From positions 4,320,001-4,352,000 of the forward strand of contig NZ_LT934425.1 of NCBI RefSeq assembly GCF_900232105.1: a stretch of DNA of 32,000 bases. Direction: 5' to 3'. This DNA comes from Candidatus Kuenenia stuttgartensis. Its GTDB lineage: Bacteria > Planctomycetota > Brocadiia > Brocadiales > Brocadiaceae. A model generated the notes under the pieces. The model ran no database searches and was not told the origin of the DNA. It saw only the letters and a list, made by a program, of their open reading frames with translations. A program made the position numbers and the translations under genes. How positions within the stretch are numbered: position 1 is the stretch's first letter; every line of letters begins with the position of its first letter. Shown here one piece after another: positions 2,554 to 32,000 of this stretch.

Positions 2554-3864
2554 GTGAAAAGAGACAAACATTCGCCCAAAACATCAGAAAAACAGAGTCA
2601 TCAAAAGGAGAACTGCCACGCCATGAGAAAAAGATTCGAGCCGCAAAGGAGACTTGGAAGCACACCAATATCAGAGGTAGAAATTCCCGAAAAGAGCAGG
2701 GATGAGTTAGCGCCGATTTTGAGGGCATTACAATACATATTTGTTACAGAGGAATTACGAGAGGAAGTATTCAGGGTATTGGAAGCAAAGGTAAAGGGTG
2801 GGAAGAAAGAGACAGGGCGTAATGGTATGGAGTTATGGCAGATAATGGTAATAGGAGTGGTGAGATTGGGATTAGATGCGGATTATGACAGGTTGGAAGA
2901 TATGGTGAATCACCATAGTCTGATTCGTCAGATAATGGGAGTAGATACCGTATTTGGGAGGGGTAAGAAGTATTCGCTGCAAAGCATCAAGGATAACGTA
3001 AGATTGCTCGATGAGGAGACGTTGGGGAAGATTAATGATGTGGTGGTAAAGGCAGGCCAGAGGCTGGCAAAGAACGGACGGGAGGAGAAGCTCCGCATAA
3101 AGACGGATACGTATGTGGTGGAGACAAACGTACATTTTCCTACGGACATGAATTTGCTGTGGGATGCGGGTAGGAAGTGCCTTGATGGGATAGAGGCATT
3201 TATAGAGGGAGGGGTATTGAACGGGAAAGGATGGAGAAAGGTAAAGAATTGGAGGAAAGAGCTAAAGAGTCTGATGAGGAGTAGTTCGAAAGCGGCAAGT
3301 GGTGGTGGAAACAAGAAAGAGGAGGCGGTTAAGAAGCAAGTAAAAGAGTATCTTGGATTAGCAAAGAGATTAAGTGAGAAGATAGGTGCGAGCATAATAG
3401 CGGTGTACGAAAAAATATTAACAACGGGTGCGGAAGAAATGCAGAAAGAGGCATTGGAGTCGATGGAATATTTTTATCAGATGCTGGAGAAGCACAGAGA
3501 TTTGGTAGAGAGGAGAATTATCAAGGAAGAGCAAATACCGGTAGGGGAAAAGGTATATTCACTGTTTGAACCACACACAGAATGGTTGAGTAAAGGGAAG
3601 GCGAATAAGAGGGTGGAATTAGGCCACAATCTGGTGATAGCAAGTGACCAATGGGGGTTTATCGGATATCACCAAGTAGTGGAAAAAGAAGCAGATGTGG
3701 CGTTAATTCTGCCGTTAGCAGACAAGCTATTAAATTTGTTTGGTGAAGAAGAGATAGAAAGTATAAGTGCAGACAAGGGTTTTTACAAGAAGGAATACAA
3801 GGAACTGATAAGTCTTTATATACCGAAAGTGATCATACCGAAGAAAGGAAAAAGGGGGAGGGTA
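2554..3864 (+). pseudogene. DDE transposase (IS5/IS1182/ISNCY-like, family not resolved), 3'-truncated
   Basis: Contains TDTYVVETNVHFPTDMNLLWD and SADKGFY motifs, matching the first and second D regions of IS5-type DDE enzymes. The likely true start is ATG 2623, preceded by AAAGGAG. Homology ends near KKGKRGR (~3864), where the ORF runs into IS66-type sequence. Confidence 0.6.
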
Positions 3865-8960: not shown

Positions 8961-9203
8961 TTAATCTTTTCTTATATACTCCATGGTATAATTATTACAA
9001 CCAGGACATCCAACTTTCGGCATATAATTCTCATAATATTCATTGTTAAATTTCGCCATTCCAATTCCAGCATCCACTATTGCTTCATTCACCAACAGTT
9101 CTTTGTTACATACTGAACAGCGGTATTTGTACTCTTCGGGGAGTGGGCCGAATGGTTCCTCCATCCCCTTCTGGTTTGATAACCTTCTCTTCTTTCGGCT
9201 CAT
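8961..9203 (-). CDS. Hypothetical small zinc-ribbon protein (CxxC...CxxC)
   Basis: 80-aa ORF with CSVCNKE...CPGCNN. It overlaps the last ~33 codons of the IS91 transposase ORF in another frame. No homolog recognised. Confidence 0.3.
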   Translation of the reverse strand: MSRKKRRLSNQKGMEEPFGPLPEEYKYRCSVCNKELLVNEAIVDAGIGMAKFNNEYYENYMPKVGCPGCNNYTMEYIRKD

Positions 9204-9990
9204 ACTTACCTCGCATTATCTCTTCTATTTCATTATAGATTATTCCGTATTTCGGATGCCATATCACATTAAGTTCCATCTCTCTTCCGCAATGCTCACA
9301 AACAAACGGGTCTTGACCCGTACTTGCACGATATCTCTCCTGATAACTTTTTCGCCCGATTATCTTTACCGCGCCTACTACCTCTCTACCTATCCGTTTC
9401 AATGCTTCCCGAACTATTACTTTGATCTGCTCATATATCTTCGCCGCCTGCACTCCATAATATCGTATCCTTTTAAAACCCTTCGGCAATACATGCTGGA
9501 TCATTCTACCTATAAACCGGTACACACTTACACGCTCCTTTTTCACTCTCTGCATCTCGTGAGACCTATAATGATACGTAACCCTTCTTCCATCATACTC
9601 ATCTATGCGTCTCAATGATATGGGCGGACTTACTACATATTTCGCTACATATCTCGCTAAACTCTCATATCTCTCTGGTACCTCTCCTTTTTGGACATTC
9701 GCTACAAATCCTTCGGGATAACACCTGTAACACGCATCCACTATCTTCTCGATTTCTTCCGTATCCAGCTCTTTTCTCATCATCTCCAATAAATACCATT
9801 GCCACTTCTTATGCAGCATCTTATACGGTAAATAACTTAAATGCTCCCACCTCTGCCTTTCCTCATCAAGTCCGCCGCTACTTGCTATTATATGCAGATG
9901 GGGATTATACTGACCACTTCTACCGTGGGTCTGCAACACTACTATATACCCTCCCTTGAGTGGCCTTTTGCTCACTTTAGGCACTGTCCA
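9106..9990 (-). pseudogene. IS91-family transposase, C-terminal catalytic part
   Basis: VVLQTHGRSGQYNPHLHIIASSGGL, YVAKYVVSPPISLRRI and FKRIRYYG are IS91/Y2 transposase motifs. Residues of the track ORF upstream of W (codon 9990-9988) come from the ISAzo13 end. Confidence 0.8.
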
Positions 9991-11880
9991 AAAATAATTT
10001 GGTATTTTTATTAATTTAGTTAAGTGAAATTGTATAATTCCAATCTGGCAAGACACTGTGTTTGTTTATGTTTATTTCTTTCATTTGGTCATCAGTGATT
10101 TTGATTCCTTTTTGGTATTCTTTCTCGTTAAGAATGGTTTGTACGAGAAGACCCGCTGTTGTTGTAGTGCCAGCAATTAAACTTAGCATAACATCATAAG
10201 ACCTCAAAGGATTCCCCTCCCAATTTTTACTGATAAAACTAAACAGACGATGTTCTACCGGATTCCATTTTGATGCTCCTGAGGGATAGTGGCAAATCCT
10301 GATGGAGAGTCCGTAAACTTTACAAATATTTTGATAAAGCGCATATTTCCACAACCGGGGACGAAATCCGTTGCTCCCTCCTGCGTCACAAAGAATAAGG
10401 AGTTCTTTTGCGCATGGATACCTCTTCCAACCAAATTCATCCAGCCAAATCTTAATTGACTCGACTGCAAATTCCGGTGTGTCATAGGACGTACCAACAA
10501 TAACTGTCCCTAAATTAGTCAGCAATTCATAGATACCAAACGGACATCCAACACCAATTGCCTGAGAACGAAAATCATGGGCCAAAACTTCATTTACTAT
10601 TTTTGTCCACGCCTTGCCCTCATTTCTGAAATTACCTATCAATTCCTTTTTCTTACTGTCAACACTGATTATTGGCTGACCAGAATCTTCAAAATACTTT
10701 TTTGTCTCATTAATAATTTCAAACTGTCTATTACGGTCCGGATGACGTGTCTCTGCTATCGTTTTGCGATTTACTCTCAGAGAATAATCCATGTCCTTAA
10801 GAAGCTTACTAACTGTTGTTGCACATACGCTTACACCTCTATCACCGCATTCTTTTTTTAGAGTACGTGTGCTTCTTCTCGTCCATATTTTTCCTTTACC
10901 CATTGGGTCTCCTGCAGTATCGCCCTCCATCAATTCTTCAAGAAGTTTTACCACATCAGTTTTTTTTTAATCGAAGAACGACCTGAACCAACCTTACGTA
11001 TCCGTCCCGGTGTAATGTTCTTACTCGAAAGTTCCCGACGCCCCTTGGCAATTGTTTTTACATTTATGCCGGTTAGCTGTGAAAGTCTTAAATCGCCGCC
11101 ATGTCCCAGTTTCATTGATTCTAAACCAAGATAAAGCCGTTTCTGCCTTTCATCAAGTATGGAAAGAAATGTCTGCAGGCAATCCGTAACCACTTCACTC
11201 CCAAAGCCGGGAATTAATACCTTTTCTTCCTTACAAGCACACAACATGATTGACTGTTTACGTCTGGCGAGTTGATCCGTACCTAACACCTTGGAGATAT
11301 ACAAATATTCTCCGGCAATCTGCTCGCGCAAGACCCTTCCAGATACCACTAATTGAGTCAGTGCATTAAAGACTCGCACATGTACCAGCGTTTGAAGCTC
11401 CGAGGCAAAATAACCTTCCTGGGATTTATTAATGATGGCCTCGAGAGTATCTACAAGACTTCCTTGTTGAGAAAAATATATTTGATTGAAACTCCAAATG
11501 CCATATTTATTATAGCTTGCAAGTTCATCCAGTGTATGATATTTGCCCGCATGGGAATAACTCGCACGATGTCCGAGCGATTTTAGCTTCCTGAAAACCG
11601 TTGCTTTTGAAGTCGTTCCCAAAGCTTCTCTGATACTGTCCAGAGTTAAAACGACATCCCTGCTGAATAGTCCCAAGAGCTTGCGATGAGAATACTTAGC
11701 TAAACGCATAATGACACCATTAGGATTAATACGCCGGATAAAATACCACTTAATCCTAATGTTATCATTATGGCTGGAGGGTGTCAATGCCTATATTTAC
11801 TAGTTGTAACGGCTATTACCGTGACATACACAAAGACACTGCAACGATACTATTGGTACTATACAATACCATGTTATTTG
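9991..11880 (-). mobile_element. ISAzo13-family insertion sequence, copy 1
   Basis: Imperfect terminal IRs AAATAATTTGGTATTTTTATTA (~9992-10013) and the reverse complement of TACTATACAATACCATGTTATTT (11857-11879). It encloses the two transposase ORFs. Boundaries are approximate. Confidence 0.6.
10016..11787 (-). CDS. ISAzo13-family transposase encoded as two ORFs (10948-11787 and 10016-10954) that need a -1 shift at an A9 run
   Basis: The upstream ORF ends ...RIRKVGSGRSSIKKKLMW*. The downstream frame reads TDVVKLLEELMEGDTAGDPMGKGKIWTRRSTRTL.... Together they are colinear with ISAzo13 (Rhodopirellula-type DDE) transposases. The DDE region motifs are ISVDSKKKE, LILCDAGGSNG and KWNPVEHRLF. A run of 9 A on the coding strand lies at 10960-10968. 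The likely true start is MRLAKYS (~11709). Confidence 0.8.
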
Positions 11881-11897
11881 TAGTCGCTCCCTTACTA

Positions 11898-14419
11898 TAG
11901 TCGAATAAATCTGTTTTTCGAAAAACATTCTGGGTAGGGGCGAAGCATTTGCCTGCATATAAGCTAATCTTTACCCACAAATTTCAAGAGCACCGTAGTT
12001 GTACGGCCAATTGAGCTGAAGGCTAAGTGGTGTAAAGTTCGTAAGCAACTTCAATATCAGCCAAACGTGACATGCCTCGCCAAAGTACTTCACTTCCGGG
12101 ATGGCCATCACCACGGCGACCCAGATGACCGCCAAGTTTACCTAAAAGCCGCACGGCATCATTGAGGCTTGGAGGTAAATCAGGAGGCTCCTTGACCTTG
12201 TTCGCAAAAGTTGTCAATGCTTTCCATTCAGAATCGCTGAAGTAGACAGTACAAGGGACATCAGGTGTTTCTTGTCCTAAAGTAGTCAGGTAATGGATAC
12301 GCCAAGCTATAATCATATCAATGGCCAAAGCGTTGCATAGACGACGAGCACTCTCCAACTGCCGGGCCTCGACACGACAACCGCTCTTGATAATACGATG
12401 ATAACACTCAATACCCCATCGGCGAGCATACCATTCCAAACGTTCGTAAGCATCTTTTTCTTGCTTAACCGCAACTGTGGTTAACAGCATCCATTCTAAC
12501 CCATCAATTCCGATAGGCGGATTGACTTCCTGCGCCAGCACCGCCCACACCCTGACCGCAGGCATATTCTTTTTTAGCATAGGTGGGCGTAGCGTAACAG
12601 GCATCGCCGGTTGCTGTTCCAGTTTAGTCCACAAAAACTCGCATGATTCTTTATCATCAACAACCTTTCTATTGCGCGAACGTTCTGCACGGATCAGCAA
12701 CTGAGCGCCATCAGGCGTATTATACTGCTCAGCGAATACCTCGTGAATATCGGCCTCACGATCTGCCACAACCACCAGCAAAGATTTGTTTCGACAGCGT
12801 TTCTGTACTTGCGATACTGCATGGTAACTCTCCACCCATTTCCAGCTTTCCTTCTCTTCGATAGGCTTCTTGTGTCGTTCATGTTTGCTGCCTATTCCGT
12901 CCCGCGCCCAGCATTGCACATTCAGAAGTCCCAAGGGTGTACCACTTTCAGTAAACGCCATCGTATCATGCACCATCAGTCCACGAACTTTTTCACTCTT
13001 AGTACCTATCGGCCCTAACCCCTGCGTATTCGGATGTGTGCTATAATTCAGAGTCGTAGTATCTTGCGCTACCAAAACCAAACTATTCTCCTTCACACGC
13101 TCTTCCGTGGCCTCATAATGAGCTTGCAATATCGCCTTCCAATCTACATTCTCATTGTCAAGGAATCGGTATGCAGCCTTAGTCGCACTGACTGAACCGC
13201 ACGCCTGCGGAATGTTTGCCAAAGGTTTGTCATAAAACATACCTGTCATTTCTAAAAGTCTTGAGGTCAATCGTGCATCGCCCAATTTTGTTCCTCCAAG
13301 TTCCGCTTCTATCCAATCCCGAGGCTCTTTTTGTGCCACTCTTTGGCGAACATGTACTTTGCCATCGGCACAACAACACAACACCGCCTGCCATTTCTTT
13401 TGCAACGGCATAACATAAACGTCTTTGACCGTTGCACCTGTTCCTTTTCGTCCTCGACCTTCCGTGCCTCCTACATACTTCCAGTTAGCTGCCCGATAAC
13501 AGCTTCCGGAAAACCGTCCTCGTTCCACATAGGTTTCTAAAAGTACAGGACGATATTTATACACTCTTTCCCAATCATCTACCAAACGTGTTTGGCATTT
13601 TGCCAATACATGCGATGCCAAACATTTTACTCTTACCGTAGGCGCTATTAAATACCGACTGTTATTGATAACAAACGTATGATTCCGCTTACGTGCTTCC
13701 TCCGTCCATCCTATCCACTCGTCGCGACTTTCCACCCGTCTGGCACAGGCACTATAACTTAGCCCTCCTATCCATCCGTAATATTCACTGCGTACAAGAT
13801 ACCGAAGTTGCGCCCCGCATAGGGGCCCACTTCCAAGATAATGATGCGCTTCTAACATGCTACGCCAAAGTTTCGAATGGAATCTCGTTGTAACCCGTAT
13901 AATCTCTACGTCACCCAACTCCGCTAGCTCGCATGACACTTCCGCAATCGGAGGCGCCTCCGCAGGTTTATTGACTTTTTGAAATGCATAATGCTTGTTC
14001 ACCTTTGGAAGATTGATCTCTTTACGACGATCCAATTCCAATAACGCCTTGCGACAACTCATCTCTTGCAAACGGCCCGCTTGATTCCTCCAGTCCATCC
14101 ATTCGCATACCAGACGCGACAGTTTACGACGCGATAGACAGGGTTCCTTTTGGATAGTTTCTGATAAACGCTTTATTACATCATCTGAAAATATTCGACC
14201 TCCTACTCTAAGCATGTACACAGTGTAACATACGGTTAACACGGTGTCCAGCAAAAAATATGGGTCATCCCCAGCATATAAGAGAGAGACGTAAAATGCT
14301 GTACATACGCCAACCCCGCTATGTTGAAGGAGTTATACTGTACGCAGGCAAATGCTTCGCCCCCATTTTTCAAAAAGCCAAATTACCGCTAAGTTTATAA
14401 AACCAGATTTGTTTGACTA
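11898..14419 (-). mobile_element. Tn5/IS50-like IS4 element carrying a DUF4338-like N-terminal domain, bracketed by IS630-type termini
   Basis: Inner IRs GGGGCGAAGCATTTGCCTGC (11937-11956) and its complement (14344-14364). Outer inverted termini TAGTCGAATAAATCTG (11898-) and TAGTCAAACAAATCTGG (reverse complement, ending 14419) are each preceded by TA. Confidence 0.65.
12023..14254 (-). CDS. Fusion protein: DUF4338 (DruA-like) N-terminal domain plus Tn5-like IS4 transposase
   Basis: 743 aa, with the likely start MLRVGG at 14215. N-terminal motifs are HHYLGSGPLCGAQLRYLV, WIGW, INNSRYLIAP, LLETYVE and CYRAANWKYVG. The C-terminal part has WIEAELGGTKLGDARLTSRL...TKAAYRFLDN...VAQDTTTLNY...ADREADI...YARRWGIECYHRIIKSGC...PGSEVLWRG, as in Tn5/IS50. 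Confidence 0.8.
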   Translation of the reverse strand: MLDTVLTVCYTVYMLRVGGRIFSDDVIKRLSETIQKEPCLSRRKLSRLVCEWMDWRNQAGRLQEMSCRKALLELDRRKEINLPKVNKHYAFQKVNKPAEAPPIAEVSCELAELGDVEIIRVTTRFHSKLWRSMLEAHHYLGSGPLCGAQLRYLVRSEYYGWIGGLSYSACARRVESRDEWIGWTEEARKRNHTFVINNSRYLIAPTVRVKCLASHVLAKCQTRLVDDWERVYKYRPVLLETYVERGRFSGSCYRAANWKYVGGTEGRGRKGTGATVKDVYVMPLQKKWQAVLCCCADGKVHVRQRVAQKEPRDWIEAELGGTKLGDARLTSRLLEMTGMFYDKPLANIPQACGSVSATKAAYRFLDNENVDWKAILQAHYEATEERVKENSLVLVAQDTTTLNYSTHPNTQGLGPIGTKSEKVRGLMVHDTMAFTESGTPLGLLNVQCWARDGIGSKHERHKKPIEEKESWKWVESYHAVSQVQKRCRNKSLLVVVADREADIHEVFAEQYNTPDGAQLLIRAERSRNRKVVDDKESCEFLWTKLEQQPAMPVTLRPPMLKKNMPAVRVWAVLAQEVNPPIGIDGLEWMLLTTVAVKQEKDAYERLEWYARRWGIECYHRIIKSGCRVEARQLESARRLCNALAIDMIIAWRIHYLTTLGQETPDVPCTVYFSDSEWKALTTFANKVKEPPDLPPSLNDAVRLLGKLGGHLGRRGDGHPGSEVLWRGMSRLADIEVAYELYTT

Positions 14420-14423
14420 TATA

Positions 14424-14840
14424 AAAATCATCCAGACATCTCTCCCCGCATGCCATGAATGCTCCTAACAATTTCTCTGAATTGTTATAAAATATTCTTC
14501 GCAACACCGACGGTACCGTTAATACTATATGCCGGTAGATTACTCCCTCATGTAACATCTTGCTTATTTGACTTATCCAATTATCTACATACACTTTACT
14601 ACACCTTAAACAAAAACTGCTCTTACAACTCATCGGCACTACTCGTTTACCGCGTCCACAACTAAAACACAAATATTCCGTCAATCCCATCTTCTCTGGA
14701 TCACCACAATTAAGCATCTTCTCCACTACTTCATCATAATAGGTGGTATCATACCTGGGAAACAACTTCTTAAAATTATCCCAATGATCAAAAAATATCT
14801 GCTTGAATATATTCCACCCTTGCCTCTGAATTATTTCCAT
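14424..14840 (-). pseudogene. IS91-family transposase, N-terminal zinc-binding part
   Basis: MEIIQRQGW...CFSCGRGKRVVPMSCKSSFCLRCSKVY is the IS91 N-terminal zinc-finger pattern. Homology ends at ...CLDDF (codon 14426-14424), where the IS630-type terminus begins. Confidence 0.8.
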
Positions 14841-15054
14841 AATCTGATTAGTATAACAACTGTCATATCTATCTACAATATAATATTTTACAACAATACA
14901 TCCCCGCAAACCCGCATAATTAAAATGAAAATTCCTATACTATCAAGTTATTCGTTTAATTCGGTGCTGGTCCAAATCCTGCGGATTTCAATGCGGCCAT
15001 GGCCTTTTTCAATTGTTTCGTGCTGAGGGGGGGAAAAGAACTGAGATTCAGTTC

Positions 15055-16338
15055 CTAGATGGCTTGTTTTATGGTTTTTTGATTATCTTTCACCGTGAAT
15101 ATATATTCTGCCTTTTTGTCTTCTACCAGATAACGGGCGGTTTCCTTTTGCGCATGTAAGGCATCGAAAGTAACGACACGGTCTTTTATGTCTAAATCAT
15201 CAAACAATACCGGAACCATCGGTATTTCGTTTGTTTTGCAGTCTACCTGAGTTTGTGCGAGAACTATACCCTGTTTATGAAGAAAAGCGGCAAGCAAATG
15301 TACCTGTTTGCCGTCAGGCTGTCTTGCACCGCAAAGGGTTTTCCCGTCAACCGCAATGGGCAGGCTTTTATCACCTACAGATTGAAACCAACGCGAGAGG
15401 ACTTTATCAACTGCTTCTGCATCCACCTGCTGTAAGAAACGCCTGATGGTAGGTTCACTCGGTGGTTCGTATCGTTTCGTTTTTGTATTATAACGGCAGG
15501 AGAGACGTTTTAGCATATTTTGCGGACAACGCTTTGCCCACTCTGCAATGGCGGCAAAGCTCCAGGCATTGCAGATGATAGCACAGATAGAAATTGCCAG
15601 GATAGAACGTTTCCTGTGGCGAACGCCTCTGGGCATGCGATGTTCAGGGATTTGCTGCAATAATTCGTCAAGAAATTCCGCATCTTTTAAAGATAATTTC
15701 ATAGGCTTTGTCTCCTTTCTTAATTGTATGGTAAGATTAAGGTTGTTAAGTTGTTTTTGGACTTGTGCATTCAATGAGCGAACAAAGACCATCTTTGGCT
15801 TATTGTGCAGAAGATAGCCTTGTGATGATCTGGCAAAACCGGTTGAATGTCCTAAAAAAATCCATCCTGCGGCCTTATAGCAGACGCCTTTAAAAAAACG
15901 AGGATCGACAAAGGTCTCCACAAGCCAGATTGGATGCCCATAGACCTTAGTCCAGTCTTGTGATAAGCGCTTAAGGTTAAGAGAAAGAATACGGGAGGCA
16001 AGGTTTGGTACGTGTATCTGAGGAAGGATCAGGAAACGTGAGTTGTTTGCTATGAGTTTCAGTCGTTGCGATTTTAAAAATGGCGGCCATCCAATCCACT
16101 TATCGCGAACGGTACATTTTAATGCTGCGGCAGCCCAGCCGATCAAGGCAAGCCATTGTCCCTGTGATTCCGCTACGTAGCGAATTGATTCTCCTACGAG
16201 AGAATGAAATCCAAGGTAATGATGCTGGCGCATCAGTGTGTCCCAATTTGCCTGGTCGTTTTGTGAAACAGGACGAACGGTAATTGAATGAAGTAGTTCG
16301 TTGTGTGTGTTATCGATTGGTGTTGTATGCTGGTTCAT
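15055..16338 (-). pseudogene. Fusion protein: DUF4338 (DruA-like) domain plus ISAs1-family transposase, C-terminally truncated
   Basis: 427 aa. N-terminal motifs are HHYLGFHSLVGESIRYVA, WIGW, ANNSRFLILP, LVETFVD and CYKAAGW. These are followed by ISAs1-type IPEHRMPRGVRHRKRSILAISICAIICNAWSFAAIAEWAK...IAVDGKTLCGAR...TNEIPMVPVLFDDLDIKDRVVTFDALHAQ. Confidence 0.75.
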
Positions 16339-16432
16339 GCCCTATAATATAAAATATTTTAGGGGGAATGTCCACGTTTTTTTACATATCTTTGTATATT
16401 ATGTGCTTATGGAAAACTTTGACAGCGCCGTG
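15055..16432 (-). mobile_element. ISAs1-family element with DUF4338-like domain, copy 1 (3'-truncated)
   Basis: The 5' terminus CACGGCGCTGTCAAAG... (reverse complement, ending 16432) is shared with copy 2 at 22881. The transposase ORF stops after VKDNQKTIKQAI, so the distal DDE region is missing and no second terminus is seen. Confidence 0.7.
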
Positions 16433-17285
16433 GTCATTTATCCGAGGAGCTTTATAAAAAAGGATATGGAGTTTCTTACGAAACAATTCGAGTCATTCTT
16501 AAACAACTTGGGTATAGTCTTCAAGGTAATGATAAATCTTTGGAAGATTCTCATCCTGATCGTGATGCACAATTCAAGTATATCACCATGCAGGTAAAAA
16601 AGTTTTTAAAAGACAATCTTCCTGTTATTTCTGTTGACACTAAAAAGAAGGAATTGCTGGGAAACTATGCAAACAAAGGGCAAGAATGGCGGAAAAAAGG
16701 TTCTCCCCGAAAAGTTAATGGTCGAGATTTCCCTGATCCCAAAGGAAAAGAAATAGGCATCCCCTATGGCATCTATGATCAGGGTAAAATTTAGGAGTGG
16801 TCAATGTCGGATGCGATCATGATACCTCAGATTTTGCAGTACAAAGCATTCATAGGTGGTGGACTTATATGGGAAGAAAGATTTATCCTGATGCAAAAAA
16901 GCTGTTGATATGTGCAGATAGTGGTGGCAGTAACGGCTATAGAGTTCGCCTATGGAAAATCAAACTACAAGAATTTGCAAATAAATCAGGCATGGAAATT
17001 ACAGTATGCCATTTTCCTAAAGGAACAATTAAATGGAACAAAATGGAACATAGACTTTTTTCTCATATTAGCATGAATTGGAAAGGTCATCCGCTGACCA
17101 GCCATGATGTTATGGTTAATTTAATTGGCGCAACAAAAACAAAAACCGGATTGAAGGTTGGAGTTAAAATTGACAAAAGGAAATATCCAACAGGGATAAA
17201 GGTTTCCGATCAGGAAATGGAAAAGATTAATATTGGAAAGCATAATTTCCATGGAGATTGGAATTATACAATTTCAAAAAATTGA
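16433..17285 (+). pseudogene. ISAzo13-family transposase, copy 2, N-terminally truncated with an internal stop
   Basis: The frame reads GHLSEELYKKGYGVSYETIRVILKQLGYSLQGNDKSLEDSHPDRDAQFKYI...ISVDTKKKE...(TAG at 16795-16797)...LICADSGGSNG...KWNKMEHRLF...GDWNYTI, colinear with residues ~30-312 of ORF 10016-10954. It begins exactly at the ISAs1 terminus. Confidence 0.8.
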
Positions 17286-22880: not shown

Positions 22881-23626
22881 CACGGCGCTGTCAAAGTTTT
22901 CCATAAGCGCATAATATACAAAGATATGTAAAAAAACGTGGACATTCCCCCTAAAATATTTTATATTATAGGGCATGAACCAGCATACAACACCAATCGA
23001 TAACACACACAATGAACTACTTTGTTCAATTACCGTTCGTCCTGTTTCACAAAACGACCAGGCAAATTGGGACATACTGATGCGCCAGCATCATTACCTT
23101 GGATTTCATTCTCTCGTAGGAGAATCAATTCGCTACGTAGCGGAATCACAGGGACAATGGCTTGCCTTGATCGGCTGGGCTGCCGCAGCATTAAAATGTA
23201 CCGTTCGCGATAAGTGGATTGGATGGCCGCCATTTTTAAAATCGCAACGACTGAAACTCATAGCAAACAACTCACGTTTCCTGATCCTTCCTCAGATACA
23301 CGTACCAAACCTTGCCTCCCGTATTCTTTCTCTTAACCTTAAGCGCTTATCACAAGACTGGACTAAGGTCTATGGGCATCCAATCTGGCTTGTGGAGACC
23401 TTTGTCGATCCTCGTTTTTTTAAAGGCGTCTGCTATAAGGCCGCAGGATGGATTTTTTTAGGACATTCAACCGGTTTTGCCAGATCATCACAAGGCTATC
23501 TTCTGCACAATAAGCCAAAGATGGTCTTTGTTCGCTCATTGAATGCACAAGTCCAAAAACAACTTAACAACCTTAATCTTACCATACAATTAAGAAAGGA
23601 GACAAAGCCTATGAAATTATCTTTAA
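22881..23626 (+). mobile_element. ISAs1-family element with DUF4338-like domain, copy 2 (5' 746 bp only)
   Basis: Near-identical to 16432-15687 in reverse complement. Identity ends at TTAA (23623-23626), where the next IS begins. Confidence 0.8.
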
Positions 23627-23649
23627 CACCGATTTTCACACACACATAA
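22975..23649 (+). pseudogene. DUF4338-like domain ORF (truncated copy of the ISAs1 fusion transposase)
   Basis: The first 217 aa differ at 2 residues from ORF 15055-16338. The tail TPIFTHT* is read-through into the inserted IS. Confidence 0.8.
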
Positions 23650-28415: not shown

Positions 28416-28496
28416 GCAGAATTTAATACTCTAGAAACAATTCGAATGCAAGAAAAAAACAGATTTTTATAAAAATAAATGCTTTTTACTATACAA

Positions 28497-30349
28497 CGGA
28501 TGTTCACCCCAAGTCAAAAAACAAAAGTGCCGTAAAAGCCTTATATTTATTGACTTTTACGCCGAACAGCAAGCTTTTTTCTAGTGACTACCCGTATGTT
28601 CCGGCTTGGCAATACTTCTGGCAACTTTATCTGTAATGCCTCTAATAATTCATGTGATTGTTGCCGCGGACGCGGGATCTTCTGGCAACTAGCTTTTTGG
28701 CCTTTGATTGTTACTTCCATCGAACAAATGGTCGTCAATTGTGCGAGACCTTCCTCTACCGTCAAGTCAAAATTCTTCCACGCTCTGCGCAGCCTTCGAA
28801 TTATCATGTACGCAAGCATTACCACAAACACATGTCCCCGTGTACTATCCTCCTTTCTTACATACACCGGACGAACCTCCAAATTCACCGTCTTACAGTC
28901 CCGAAACGCCTTCTCCACTTCCGTTAAATCCTTGTATCGTTCATGTACCAGATTGGTATCCGCCTCGTTCTCCTCAAGATCAGTCTTGATTGCGTAACAA
29001 CCATCAAGGTATGATGCCTCCTTTAATGCTTCCTCAGCTCTCTCTATCTTTAGCGTCCTATCCTCTTCTTTTATCTGCACCCACCCATCAAGTTTCAATC
29101 TCGTTAGCCTTTCCCTTGTTGTTTCCAGGGCCTTCGATACTGACGACTTAGGATGTTCCTTCAGATAACTGTTCTTCTTCACGATGTATTTCTCTATACT
29201 CTGTAATTTTGATACACGGGTCTTTGACATCTCTTCCGCCCTTACCGGATTGCGCCTCAGAATATATCTAACCTCATCATCCTTTATCTCGCAGAGCTTT
29301 TCTTCGAACAATCCTAATTGCAGTATCCCTTTATTTATCAACGACTCTATCTGCGGCTTGGTTATCGCCGTTATGTAATGAAACCCTTCCGGTAAACTTT
29401 CGATTTGCACCGTCTTGATCATCCCACGATCTCCTACAATCGTTACATCTTTGCATCCAAACCGCTCTAATACCTTCTTTACCTGAGATTCAAAGGTCTT
29501 CGGATCCTGGGTGTTGCCCCTAAATACTTCTGTTGATACCGGCTCCCCGAATTCATCACAAAGCATACCGATCACTATCTGTTTTTTCCTCTTTTTGCCG
29601 TCACGATTATACCCGTACTCACCAAAATGATTCGACTTCCCCTCTAAATAACTGCTCGTCACGTCATACAAAAACAACTTCGGCTTATTGCCTCCTCGTC
29701 TTAACTCAAACAGCTTTCGCTCTATCTTTGCCTGATTCTCTGACAACCATGACAAATTATCGTACAGATTGTTCTCGTCAAACCCACGCTTCATATCCAG
29801 GACGTCACCCGCAGCATGTATCTGCGCCAGCCTTACTGCAGACAGTCTTGACCCCCGGCCTATTACCCTTGCCATTACTTGCCAAAGCGCCAGCTTTCCT
29901 TCAAAGTCCTTTCCCAATGCCTCTTCTATCCCTAATTCCTTTGCCACTTGGTACACGCTCCACGCTGCTCCCACAGACAAACCCTCATGGAGTTTCACCG
30001 ATTCTGACAATGCGCCCAATGCACAGAGATCGTCTTTATGTGCGAGTGCAAGTCTTATCGCTTCAATCTCCAGGGGAGTGCAATTCGACAGATTCGCAAT
30101 GGTGCGTTTCTTGACCTTCCCATCCTCACGGTACGATTCCCGCAGAAGGGTAGATCGATAGATTTTTTTACCGGATTTTGACTTGTTCTCTACAATATGC
30201 ATGTCCACCATTGTACAGATAACAACCATTATCAGTCAAGTATATTGTCGGATAATAACAATATATTAGTGACTACATATTTATTAAAAATACAGCCTTA
30301 ACAAACTATGTATTAAGCACTTATGCGTTTTGGCAGGGGTGAACATCCG
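28497..30349 (-). mobile_element. IS1634-family insertion sequence, copy 2 (complete)
   Basis: Same IRs as copy 1 (28497-28510 and 30336-30349). A 6-bp TSD ATACAA lies at 28491-28496 and 30350-30355. Confidence 0.9.
28547..30229 (-). CDS. IS1634-family DDE transposase
   Basis: 560 aa, with 4 substitutions relative to ORF 261-1943. Confidence 0.88.
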   Translation of the reverse strand: MVVICTMVDMHIVENKSKSGKKIYRSTLLRESYREDGKVKKRTIANLSNCTPLEIEAIRLALAHKDDLCALGALSESVKLHEGLSVGAAWSVYQVAKELGIEEALGKDFEGKLALWQVMARVIGRGSRLSAVRLAQIHAAGDVLDMKRGFDENNLYDNLSWLSENQAKIERKLFELRRGGNKPKLFLYDVTSSYLEGKSNHFGEYGYNRDGKKRKKQIVIGMLCDEFGEPVSTEVFRGNTQDPKTFESQVKKVLERFGCKDVTIVGDRGMIKTVQIESLPEGFHYITAITKPQIESLINKGILQLGLFEEKLCEIKDDEVRYILRRNPVRAEEMSKTRVSKLQSIEKYIVKKNSYLKEHPKSSVSKALETTRERLTRLKLDGWVQIKEEDRTLKIERAEEALKEASYLDGCYAIKTDLEENEADTNLVHERYKDLTEVEKAFRDCKTVNLEVRPVYVRKEDSTRGHVFVVMLAYMIIRRLRRAWKNFDLTVEEGLAQLTTICSMEVTIKGQKASCQKIPRPRQQSHELLEALQIKLPEVLPSRNIRVVTRKKLAVRRKSQ

Positions 30350-30426
30350 ATACAACCGGGAAGTGAAGGAACGATTGCCGTAAATCCCCCTTCATCACTT
30401 GGTTCTAAAATTACTTGAATTTTCAT
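30350..30426 (-). pseudogene. hicB: HicB-like (UPF0150) antitoxin, N-terminal part (residues 1-25)
   Basis: MKIQVILEPSDEGGFTAIVPSLPGC is the canonical HicB/UPF0150 N-terminus. It is cut at the TA used by IS630 and at the ATACAA used by IS1634. Confidence 0.75.
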
Positions 30427-30506: not shown

Positions 30507-30617
30507 TCAATTCCTATCTTTTGCTTCGACGATATTAATTTCCTCATATGTCAATCCATACAGTCTGTAAACAATTTCATCTATCAACTTATCTATCGCC
30601 TTACTTCTTGTTTTTAA
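30507..30617 (-). pseudogene. C-terminal 36 codons of a DNA methyltransferase/restriction enzyme (type IIG, Eco57I or PglX-like tail)
   Basis: LKTRSKAIDKLIDEIVYRLYGLTYEEINIVEAKDRN*. The ID..VY.LYGLT.EEI..VE tail is characteristic of these enzymes. The upstream part is displaced by IS1634 copy 3. Confidence 0.55.
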
Positions 30618-32000
30618 CGGATGTTCACCCCTGCCAAAACGCATAAGTGCTTAATATATAGTTTGTTAAGGCTGTATTTTTAATAAATATGTAGTCACTA
30701 ATATATTGTTATTATACGACAATATACTTGACGGATAATGGTTGTTATCTGTACAATGGTGGACATGCATATTGTAGAGAACAAGTCAAAATCCGGTAAA
30801 AAAATCTATCGATCTACCCTTCTGCGGGAATCGTACCGTGAGGATGGGAAGGTCAAGAAACGCACCATTGCGAATCTGTCGAATTGCACTCCCCTGGAGA
30901 TTGAAGCGATAAGACTTGCACTCGCACATAAAGACGATCTCTGTGCATTGGGCGCATTGTCAGAATCGGTGAAACTCCATGAGGGTTTGTCTGTGGGAGC
31001 AGCGTGGAGCGTGTACCAAGTGGCAAAGGAATTAGGGATAGAAGAGGCATTGGGAAAGGACTTTGAAGGAAAGCTGGCGCTTTGGCAAGTAATGGCAAGG
31101 GTAATAGGCCGGGGGTCAAGACTGTCTGCAGTAAGGCTGGCGCAGATACATGCTGCGGGTGACGTCCTGGATATGAAGCGTGGGTTTGACGAGAACAATC
31201 TGTACGATAATTTGTCATGGTTGTCAGAGAATCAGGCAAAGATAGAGCGAAAGCTGTTTGAGTTAAGACGAGGAGGCAATAAGCCGAAGTTGTTTTTGTA
31301 TGACGTGACGAGCAGTTATTTAGAGGGGAAGTCGAATCATTTTGGTGAGTACGGGTATAATCGTGACGGCAAAAAGAGGAAAAAACAGATAGTGATCGGT
31401 ATGCTTTGTGATGAATCCGGGGAGCCGGTATCAACAGAAGTATTTAGGGGCAACACCCAGGATCCGAAGACCTTTGAATCTCAGGTAAAGAAGGTATTAG
31501 AGCGGTTTGGATGTAAAGATGTAACGATTGTAGGAGATCGTGGGATGATCAAGACGGTGCAAATCGAAAGTTTACCGGAAGGGTTTCATTACATAACGGC
31601 GATAACTAAGCCGCAGATAGAGTCGTTGATAAATAAAGGGATACTGCAATTAGGATTGTTCGAAGAAAAGCTCTGCGAGATAAAGGATGATGAGGTTCGA
31701 TATATTCTGAGGCGCAATCCGGTAAGGGCGGAAGAGATGTCAAAGACCCGTGTATCAAAATTACAGAGTATAGAGAAATACATCGTGAAGAAGAACAGTT
31801 ATCTGAAGGAACATCCTAAGTCGTCAGTATCGAAGGCCCTGGAAACAACAAGGGAAAGGCTAACGAGATTGAAACTTGATGGGTGGGTGCAGATAAAAGA
31901 AGAGGATAGGACGCTAAAGATAGAGAGAGCTGAGGAAGCATTAAAGGAGGCATCATACCTTGATGGTTGTTACGCAATCAAGACTGATCTTGAGGAGAAC
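30618..32000 (+). mobile_element. IS1634-family insertion sequence, copy 3 (runs off the window)
   Basis: Left IR CGGATGTTCACCCC at 30618-30631. The sequence is colinear with copy 1 to the window end. Confidence 0.9.
30738..32000 (+). CDS. IS1634-family DDE transposase (partial, 421 codons in window)
   Basis: ATG at 30738 in the same context as ATG 261. The frame is open to the window edge. It is absent from the ORF track because there is no stop in the window. Confidence 0.85.
   Translation, partial: MVVICTMVDMHIVENKSKSGKKIYRSTLLRESYREDGKVKKRTIANLSNCTPLEIEAIRLALAHKDDLCALGALSESVKLHEGLSVGAAWSVYQVAKELGIEEALGKDFEGKLALWQVMARVIGRGSRLSAVRLAQIHAAGDVLDMKRGFDENNLYDNLSWLSENQAKIERKLFELRRGGNKPKLFLYDVTSSYLEGKSNHFGEYGYNRDGKKRKKQIVIGMLCDESGEPVSTEVFRGNTQDPKTFESQVKKVLERFGCKDVTIVGDRGMIKTVQIESLPEGFHYITAITKPQIESLINKGILQLGLFEEKLCEIKDDEVRYILRRNPVRAEEMSKTRVSKLQSIEKYIVKKNSYLKEHPKSSVSKALETTRERLTRLKLDGWVQIKEEDRTLKIERAEEALKEASYLDGCYAIKTDLEEN

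Follow-up and report, generated by a model that had tools for sequence, protein, structure and literature searches.

Why should two transposases of different families begin with a domain that bears the name of an anti-phage protein? The question is raised by a 32,000-nucleotide stretch of the Candidatus Kuenenia stuttgartiensis MBR1 genome (contig NZ_LT934425.1, positions 4,320,001 to 4,352,000; the window), in which two open reading frames (ORFs) of the minus strand, ORF1 (12023-14254) and ORF2 (15055-16338), carry DUF4338, the Pfam family PF14236 now named DruA, upstream of a transposase core. An earlier note, made from the letters alone, had suggested a portable module shared by unrelated transposases and a link between defence and transposition. 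We find that, in two DDE families (Tn5/IS50-like IS4 and ISAs1), these are genuine insertion sequences (IS) whose transposase has acquired the DUF4338 module. Structure models identify the module as a GNAT-fold domain whose nearest solved structure is Mom, the DNA-modifying enzyme of phage Mu, and we tentatively consider it a transferase directed at nucleic acid.

The shared N-terminal domain

The domain was detected by Pfam in ORF1 at residues 80-269 (E 9.9e-36, 123.8 bits) and in ORF2 at residues 21-168 (E 3.8e-23, 82.5 bits), and it is the only match in a third, shorter ORF on the plus strand (22975-23649; 85.1 bits); all three exceed the PF14236 gathering cutoff of 27 bits, which confirms the family named in the earlier note. 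Downstream of it, ORF1 matches Tnp_DNA_bind, DDE_Tnp_1 and Dimer_Tnp_Tn5, and ORF2 matches DDE_Tnp_1_assoc followed by DDE_Tnp_1, the Tn5-type and DDE_Tnp_1_assoc hits that had been anticipated for the respective proteins. When the two proteins were compared by BLASTP, the N-terminal domain alone aligned, with 35% identity across 167 residues and an E of 2e-31, a likeness far beyond chance, and nothing significant was obtained outside it. The motif blocks previously described as colinear in both ORFs were all found in the translations.

The core of ORF1 is of the Tn5/IS50-like IS4 type, as proposed: it scores 358.7 bits with the NCBIfam IS4 model (cutoff 160), and residues 311-551 match the Tn5 transposase in the PDB with an E of 1.5e-31. 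The ISAs1 assignment of ORF2 stands for the part of the core that is left, which scores 134.2 bits with NCBIfam NF033564 (cutoff 70) and covers only model positions 1-178 of 314. The two cores had been called unrelated; they do represent different IS families, but both match DDE_Tnp_1, so the word is too strong.

The Tn5-type element

ORF1 lies within a Tn5-like element that looks intact from its sequence. Its parts are as follows.

11956..11963, no strand: target-site duplication, low-coordinate copy, CATATAAG (the octamer directly abuts both IS ends)
11964..14274, minus strand: complete Tn5-like IS4-family IS of 2311 bp, carrying the gene for a winged helix-turn-helix (wHTH)-GNAT-transposase protein (ends aligned with a relative in locus L089)
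12023..14254, minus strand: ORF1, fusion transposase, 743 residues from TTG or 730 from ATG at 14215
12026..13324, minus strand: Tn5-type core with end-binding, DDE catalytic and dimerisation domains (PDB Tn5 match, Pfam)
13406..13939, minus strand: DUF4338/'DruA' GNAT domain, residues ~93-270 in the 730-residue numbering (Pfam, AlphaFold2 model, alignments)
14027..14215, minus strand: three-helix wHTH-like region, residues 1-63 in the 730-residue numbering (secondary structure of the full-length AlphaFold2 model)
14275..14282, no strand: target-site duplication, high-coordinate copy, CATATAAG

The start is likely the ATG at 14215, which gives the 730 residues of the RefSeq entry WP_099326865.1, named 'IS4 family transposase'. 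The full-length AlphaFold2 model, with a mean predicted local distance difference test score (pLDDT) of 83, comprises the wHTH-like region (1-63), the GNAT domain (93-270) and the Tn5 core (301-730). The wHTH-like region has no Pfam match and is kept as well in relatives of the Tn5 type, in those associated with IS66 and in some of the ISAs1 type.

The left end of the element in coding orientation, which is the high-coordinate end of this minus-strand element, reads CTGGGGATGACCCATATTTTT, and the right end, read inward, CTAATCTTTACCCACAAATTT. Both have diverged and still align with the ends of the 75%-identical relative in L089, which has inverted repeats matching at 17 of 20 positions and starting with CTGATC, and which is inserted into an FtsX/MacB permease gene with a perfect 9-bp duplication, GGAATCAGG. 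The duplication in the window measures 8 bp, or 9 bp if an adjoining ambiguous G is counted. A pair of 23-nt inverted repeats (GGGGCGAAGCATTTGCCTGCATA; 11937-11959 and 14341-14363) had been a candidate for the IS ends and was rejected, the comparison with L089 placing the ends at 11964 and 14274. These repeats bound a sequence of about 104 bp (11937-11963 plus 14275-14363) into which the Tn5-like IS was inserted and which looks like a miniature inverted-repeat transposable element (MITE); the window holds no other copy of the 23-nt repeat. A search for inverted repeats in another locus, L088, returned flanking palindromic repeats only and no IS ends.

Typical Tn5/IS50-like IS are about 1.5 kb long and encode transposases of about 450-480 residues. 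Over residues 311-743, ORF1 runs colinear with practically the entire Tn5 transposase (PDB 1MUH), the DDE and YREK residues being intact and readable in the translation (AQDTT, ADREAD, YARRWGIECYHRIIK), and elements of the ORF1 type share with Tn5/IS50 ends that start with CTG and a 9-bp target duplication. They differ in about 300 extra N-terminal residues (the wHTH-like region and the GNAT domain), in a length of 2.3-2.4 kb, with proteins of ~750 residues in the relatives, and in having no evident separate inhibitor protein.

The ISAs1-type elements

ORF2 belongs to the first of two ISAs1-type copies in the window.

14942..16434, minus strand: ISAs1-type IS copy 1, 3'-truncated at 14942 beside an IS91-family element (match to locus L092)
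15055..16338, minus strand: ORF2, 427 residues, with GNAT domain, DDE_Tnp_1_assoc and partial DDE core, ending at a copy-specific TAG
15769..16287, minus strand: DUF4338/'DruA' GNAT domain of ORF2, residues ~18-190 (Pfam, AlphaFold2 model, Foldseek)
22881..23626, plus strand: ISAs1-type IS copy 2, of which only the 5' 746 nt are left, holding ORF 22975-23649 (224 residues, GNAT only)

Copy 1, whose left terminus is CACGGCGCTGTCAAAG, is 99.3% identical to positions 1405-2896 of L092, a relative of intact length, and the match ends abruptly at 14942. The TAG that ends ORF2 is private to copy 1, relatives, among them one with 99% identity, having a Lys codon there, and copy 1 also carries one extra C in a homopolymer. 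Copy 2 is the third, truncated occurrence of the domain that the earlier note had spotted: 15687-16432 and 22881-23626 form an inverted repeat of 746 nt with 99% identity. Judged from their sequence, both copies are dead, being truncated and interrupted by nonsense codons, and ORF2 is not an intact gene. In the Kuenenia copies of this type the Tyr codon of relatives is replaced by a shared TAA (…TSTELNE*LDFPY…), in the DDE region that follows the frameshift (14942-15054; L092 ~2900-3000), while the 442-residue upstream ORF is kept intact in many 99%-identical Kuenenia copies despite this shared stop. The Kuenenia lineage may thus be non-autonomous, or only the upstream product may be retained.

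Elsewhere the type is mobile. A 2047-bp element occurs as three identical copies at different sites of one assembly (L001-L003), two of them with 10-bp duplications, which indicates recent movement; the intact relatives in L001 and L002 have these 10-bp target duplications and short terminal inverted repeats. In these features, and in the combination of DDE_Tnp_1_assoc with an ISAs1-type DDE core, the ORF2-type elements resemble the ISAs1 family. They differ from it by the added N-terminal GNAT domain of about 190 residues and, ISAs1 elements being described as single-ORF, by the programmed-looking frameshift that most complete relatives need for a full-length transposase (see below).

Positions 2205-2474 of the window are 95.6% identical to L092 3198-3466, at and just past the 3' end of the ISAs1-type element, and are probably a further fragment of this IS family.

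Family size and transposase partners

Each of the two fusion architectures forms a very large family. With 8,000 candidates scored per full-length protein, 2,936 and 6,636 homologues were found at E<=1e-5. The top 120 for ORF1 have in common a length of about 750 residues and the same three Pfam domains, and span Planctomycetota, Chloroflexota, Acidobacteriota, Delta- and Gammaproteobacteria and others; in each of the top 120 for ORF2, DUF4338 is joined to ISAs1 domains. When a profile of the domain alone was run exhaustively with HMMER, it matched 9,380 clusters (50% identity) at E<=1e-3 and 5,845 at E<=1e-10, and at least 595 loci were collected from species-representative genomes of many phyla, isolates such as Desulfosarcina, Thiohalocapsa, Acidithiobacillus and Nitrosomonas among them.

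Partners and conservation were surveyed in the top 150 domain representatives. The module has four kinds of transposase partner: it precedes Tn5-type IS4, ISAs1 and DDE_5 (IS701-type) cores at the N-terminus and, in the IS66 family, is an overlapping downstream gene or a C-terminal fusion. The IS66 context includes a clade of stand-alone proteins of ~295-298 residues, with a wHTH-like region and a GNAT domain; in two of the three contexts examined the stand-alone gene overlaps the 3' end of an IS66-family transposase gene (among them L085 2905-4897 and L091 914-3545). A fusion of an IS66-family transposase with DUF4338 is seen in P0355, and P0356 and P0385 are further proteins from partner contexts. 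In a neighbour-joining tree the domains group by partner transposase, which points to few acquisition events followed by radiation. The earlier idea of a portable module recruited by different DDE transposases is therefore supported, and the survey of architectures suggested with it extends the idea to these four families. In the present data, the top-scoring part of the DUF4338 family is dominated by IS-associated proteins.

Recoding sites in ISAs1-type relatives

The ISAs1 core of copy 1 does not end with ORF2; it continues in another frame beyond a homopolymer.

15037..15047, minus strand: homopolymer recoding site TTTTCCCCCCC, beyond which the remaining ISAs1 core is read in a different frame (…PPQHETIEKGHGR…) (site conserved in relatives)

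Most ORF2 homologues end at ~440 residues, just past 'FPPS', and rare forms of 585 residues read 'FPPQ/EHETIEKGHGR'. Eighty genome loci were compared, 61 of them complete. The gene is uninterrupted in 14 of these 61; a +1 shift is needed in ten, at TTT_CCC_CCC_TGA/TCA around residue 436 (the site is also present at ~4290-4300 in L001-L003), and a -1 shift in at least 28, at a canonical A_AAA_AAG heptamer around residue 363 (e.g. L027 ~5031, and L007), after which the zero frame often meets a TAG at once. A few other loci shift at runs of eight or nine A. In all, about three quarters of the complete loci depend on a recoding site. The +1 site is present in the three identical, recently transposed 2047-bp copies, which shows that such an interruption is compatible with mobility. 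No conserved stimulatory RNA structure was found by RNAalifold downstream of the -1 slippery site.

The default product of most ISAs1-type relatives would thus consist of the GNAT domain and the DNA-binding region, lacking a complete DDE core, and would resemble a regulator of the OrfA type, which suggests that the role of the GNAT domain is separable from DNA cleavage. This arrangement recalls the OrfA/OrfAB control of the IS1 and IS3 families, in which an A_AAA_AAG -1 signal likewise gives a short DNA-binding product and a full-length transposase; it differs in that a second ISAs1-type lineage uses a +1 site at CCC_CCC_UGA.

Fold of the module and likeness to Mom

The AlphaFold2 model of the ISAs1-type domain (pLDDT 88.8) shows the classical GNAT topology, beta1-alpha1-alpha2-beta2-4-alpha3-beta5-alpha4-beta6. 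The structure prediction and fold search that the earlier note had advised placed Mom (8BV8) first among PDB entries in Foldseek, with an E of 4e-9 and a template-modelling (TM) score of 0.63; the 293 PDB matches at E<=1e-3 are essentially all GNATs, the later ones being classical acetyl-CoA-dependent enzymes that include SpeG, AAC(6') and Naa60. In the viral structure library BFVD, Mom-like phage proteins stand on top. The assignment, based on predicted structure, agrees with that of the Aravind group, who independently classified DUF4338 in its N-terminal fusion to DndF as a GNAT (PMC10853773), and it suits the acyltransferase guess made earlier.

Mom is a DNA adenine aminoacyltransferase that depends on Gly-tRNA(Gly); residues W48, H58, Y59, R111, S124, D149, R151 and Y159 are essential or important, the protein binds double-stranded DNA and dimerises through a Trp, and an HTH-like insertion at residues ~175-209 is needed for activity (PMC13219725). 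Agreement between MAFFT, hmmsearch and hhalign alignments, of which hmmsearch recovered only the ETFVD…CYKAANW segment, gave the following equivalences.

Mom KHY (H58, Y59): HHY in the domain
Mom MPRNSESR (S124): VPNLASR in the domain
Mom SFADER (D149): TFVDPR (ETFVD) in the domain
Mom VYQASNF (Y159): CYKAAGW in the domain

In the 150 diverse representatives, at 29-50% overall identity, H40, Y41, R78, W84, R101, S115, E141, D/E145 and Y154 are all but constant, whichever the architecture class. The equivalent of the Mom W is mostly conserved, and W32 of the domain aligns near the dimerising Trp. By eye, the Q/R-x-x-G-x-G/A motif that binds the pyrophosphate of coenzyme A (CoA) is absent from the beta4-alpha3 loop, which reads LPQIHVPNLASR in ORF2 and APTVRVKCLASH in ORF1; this loop, LPxxxVPNLASR, resembles MPRNSESR of Mom. 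The module thus shares with Mom the GNAT fold, the lack of a CoA-type Gly-rich loop, the motifs H-Y, P-x-N-x-x-S-R, F-x-D and Y-x-A-x-N/G-W/F, and an origin in mobile elements that act on double-stranded DNA. It differs in being fused to transposases, whereas Mom is free-standing in a phage late operon, and in the N-terminal wHTH-like region that ORF1 has in place of the HTH-like insertion. The statement in the earlier note that the biochemical role of DUF4338 is unknown undersells a domain whose nearest solved structure is a characterised tRNA-dependent, DNA-modifying GNAT.

BFVD also contains many phage proteins of ~500-560 residues (I7KLM9, A0A4Y5JUX8, A0A8S5L6I5), annotated as homing endonuclease or endonuclease-like, with a structurally similar domain; according to these models, they are a second association of the GNAT-like fold with mobile-element nucleases.

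Proposed role and alternatives

Conserved residues and modelled fold lead us to favour, with slightly less than even confidence, the reading of the module as an active acyl- or aminoacyl-transferase directed at nucleic acid. The Tn5 end-binding domain contacts the transposon end, and the module directly precedes the corresponding domain of the transposase, a placement that would bring IS-end or target DNA within its reach. On this DNA it would most likely install a covalent mark that tunes transposition, for example by marking the ends or fresh insertions to limit re-excision, or by coupling activity to replication. Dam methylation at IS ends gates the transposition of IS10 and IS50, and the mark would be an element-encoded counterpart of that control: alike in that a DNA mark at the IS ends would gate transposition, different in that the enzyme that writes it would be encoded by the element and fused to its transposase. 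This specific role in end marking is speculative and more doubtful than transferase activity itself. To our knowledge, no DNA-modifying enzyme has been described as part of a prokaryotic transposase; should the module be active, the elements would write a chemical mark of their own for self-control or self-protection, a new layer of transposon biology.

Several observations weigh against a Mom-like transferase. The sequence link to Mom is remote: the Pfam Mom family (PF25680) matches the ISAs1-type domain only, with 23.2-23.6 bits (E about 5e-5) under a cutoff of 27.1 bits; a single Mom sequence was uninformative against the domain in hhalign, and a Mom-family alignment raised the match to an E of 0.013 only, at ~17% identity. 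The essential R151 of Mom has no conserved equivalent among the 150 representatives, the equivalent of R111 differs between aligners, and the essential HTH-like insertion is absent, the domain ending before that region. DUF4338 has instead its own RDxWIGW two-helix insertion and the invariant Glu141, both without a Mom counterpart, so that donor and acceptor could be quite different. The IS ends compared share no obvious modification motif, and a low-abundance, cis-acting transposase is an odd vehicle for an enzyme. Throughout the DUF4338 proteins transferase activity is a prediction, and the polar residues could be conserved for sensing a ligand and not for catalysis.

One alternative is a non-catalytic GNAT-fold domain, an additional DNA-binding, target-selecting, dimerising or ligand-sensing module that would aid synapsis or restrain the transposase. 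The domain always adjoins the transposase's own DNA-binding domain; Mom itself binds DNA and dimerises through a Trp near which the conserved W32 aligns; the fold recurs in the homing-endonuclease-like phage proteins of ~500 residues, where extra domains usually bind DNA; and the R151 of Mom has no conserved counterpart. We nonetheless regard a purely non-catalytic module as rather unlikely, given that H, Y, R, S, E, D/E and Y are near-invariant at Mom active-site positions across four families and down to ~30% identity, a polar constancy that exceeds the usual needs of a binding scaffold.

An ordinary acyl-CoA-dependent GNAT that acetylates either a small molecule or a protein, be it the transposase or a nucleoid protein, would fit the nearly 300 classical acetyl-CoA-dependent GNATs that follow Mom at E<=1e-3. 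It is quite improbable: the CoA pyrophosphate signature is missing and the loop is Mom-like, Mom is the best structural and Pfam match, and the partners to which the domain is fused in frame, DNA-binding enzymes of four IS families as well as DndF (PMC10853773), point to nucleic acid.

We consider it very improbable that the domain is IS cargo with a Druantia-type defence function or acts as a decoy against Druantia. What speaks for it is the name DruA, now borne by the Pfam family and given by RefSeq to a truncated fragment, together with the fusion of DUF4338 to DndF in defence loci (PMC10853773). The PADLOC DruA models PDLC00001 and PDLC00002, however, match neither ORF1 nor ORF2 at E<=0.01 and match stand-alone relatives only weakly (E 1e-5 to 1e-6 over about 50 residues); no druB-druE-like genes, including that of the large DruE helicase, occur in the window or in the related loci examined; the C-terminal quarter of the PF14236 model is unmatched by the window proteins; and the domain is an in-frame part of a transposase, not a separate gene. 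That the fusions are artefacts of read-through between nested elements, mis-assembly or chance motif similarity, a thought prompted by a window full of nested, truncated IS elements and by the P0355 IS66 'fusion', which could be a merged gene call of two overlapping genes, has a negligible chance overall and is refuted for the Tn5-type and ISAs1-type fusions by thousands of independent homologues of the same colinear architecture and length, by identical multi-copy elements with target duplications, and by the pairwise E of 2e-31.

The preferred reading, a nucleic-acid transferase, can be carried further. The elements could form a very large undescribed class of IS (IS4/Tn5-like, ISAs1, IS701-like and IS66) whose transposases also modify DNA with an acyl or aminoacyl group in the manner of Mom, a charged tRNA being a possible donor, the domains of DruA and DndF being defence offshoots of the same enzyme. 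We think this wider picture unlikely as a whole. If it were true, type I Druantia would tell self from non-self by a hypermodification that DruA installs. With an active module, the comparison would also provide the first concrete and testable biochemical hypothesis for DruA, that of a Mom-like nucleic-acid acyl- or aminoacyl-transferase.

Relation to Druantia and database naming

PF14236 was set up under the name DUF4338, ahead of the description of Druantia, and received its present name afterwards. The window domains fall in the same Pfam family as DruA of type I Druantia, far above threshold, and differ from it in lacking the C-terminal part of the Pfam model and druB-E neighbours and in being embedded in a transposase; their sequences indicate a distant paralogue of DruA, not an orthologue. 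The defence link suggested earlier therefore survives as distant homology at the level of the family, but neither PADLOC matches nor Druantia partner genes nearby sustain it further. A tblastn search of plasmids for DruA gave two Thiodictyon records only, carrying IS-type or DUF4338 genes. In the DndF fusion, a DNA-directed conflict protein likewise bears a domain of this family as a variable part at its N-terminus, the partner there being a phosphorothioate-dependent restriction component and not a transposase (PMC10853773).

The 224-residue product of ORF 22975-23649 is named 'Druantia anti-phage system protein DruA' in RefSeq (WP_099326875.1), and other Kuenenia DUF4338 fragments bear the same name. 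The 224-residue product is a mislabelled IS remnant, and naming of this kind probably leads to false defence-gene calls in a systematic way: Pfam and RefSeq naming of IS fragments as DruA can inflate defence-system counts. Conversely, the suspicion that the fusions were already deposited under generic names proved right, ORF1 as an 'IS4 family transposase' and ORF2 as an 'ISAs1 family transposase' (SOH06489.1), so the fusions as such are not unseen. In the literature searched, which did not cover ISfinder, we found no paper on DUF4338-transposase fusions and none that connects DUF4338 or DruA with Mom. The elements amount to members of the IS4 and ISAs1 families to which a module, probably enzymatic, has been added.

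Other mobile elements in the window

ORF1 and ORF2 are surrounded in the window by further IS elements and by housekeeping genes. The span 9106-14909 holds an IS91-family element in two pieces, a Zn-finger N-terminal part (14370-14909) and a Y2 transposase part (9106-10056); nested between them are an ISAzo13-family element (10016-~11790) and the MITE that carries the Tn5-like IS. An element of ~1.87 kb is present in three copies (134-2002, 28488-30356 and 30603-32000), 99% identical and two of them in inverted orientation, and encodes an ORF of 560 residues (261-1943; 28547-30229) with no Pfam match; it may be an uncharacterised mobile element. With further elements of the IS66, ISL3, DDE_3 and DDE_Tnp_1_4 types, the window is an IS graveyard.

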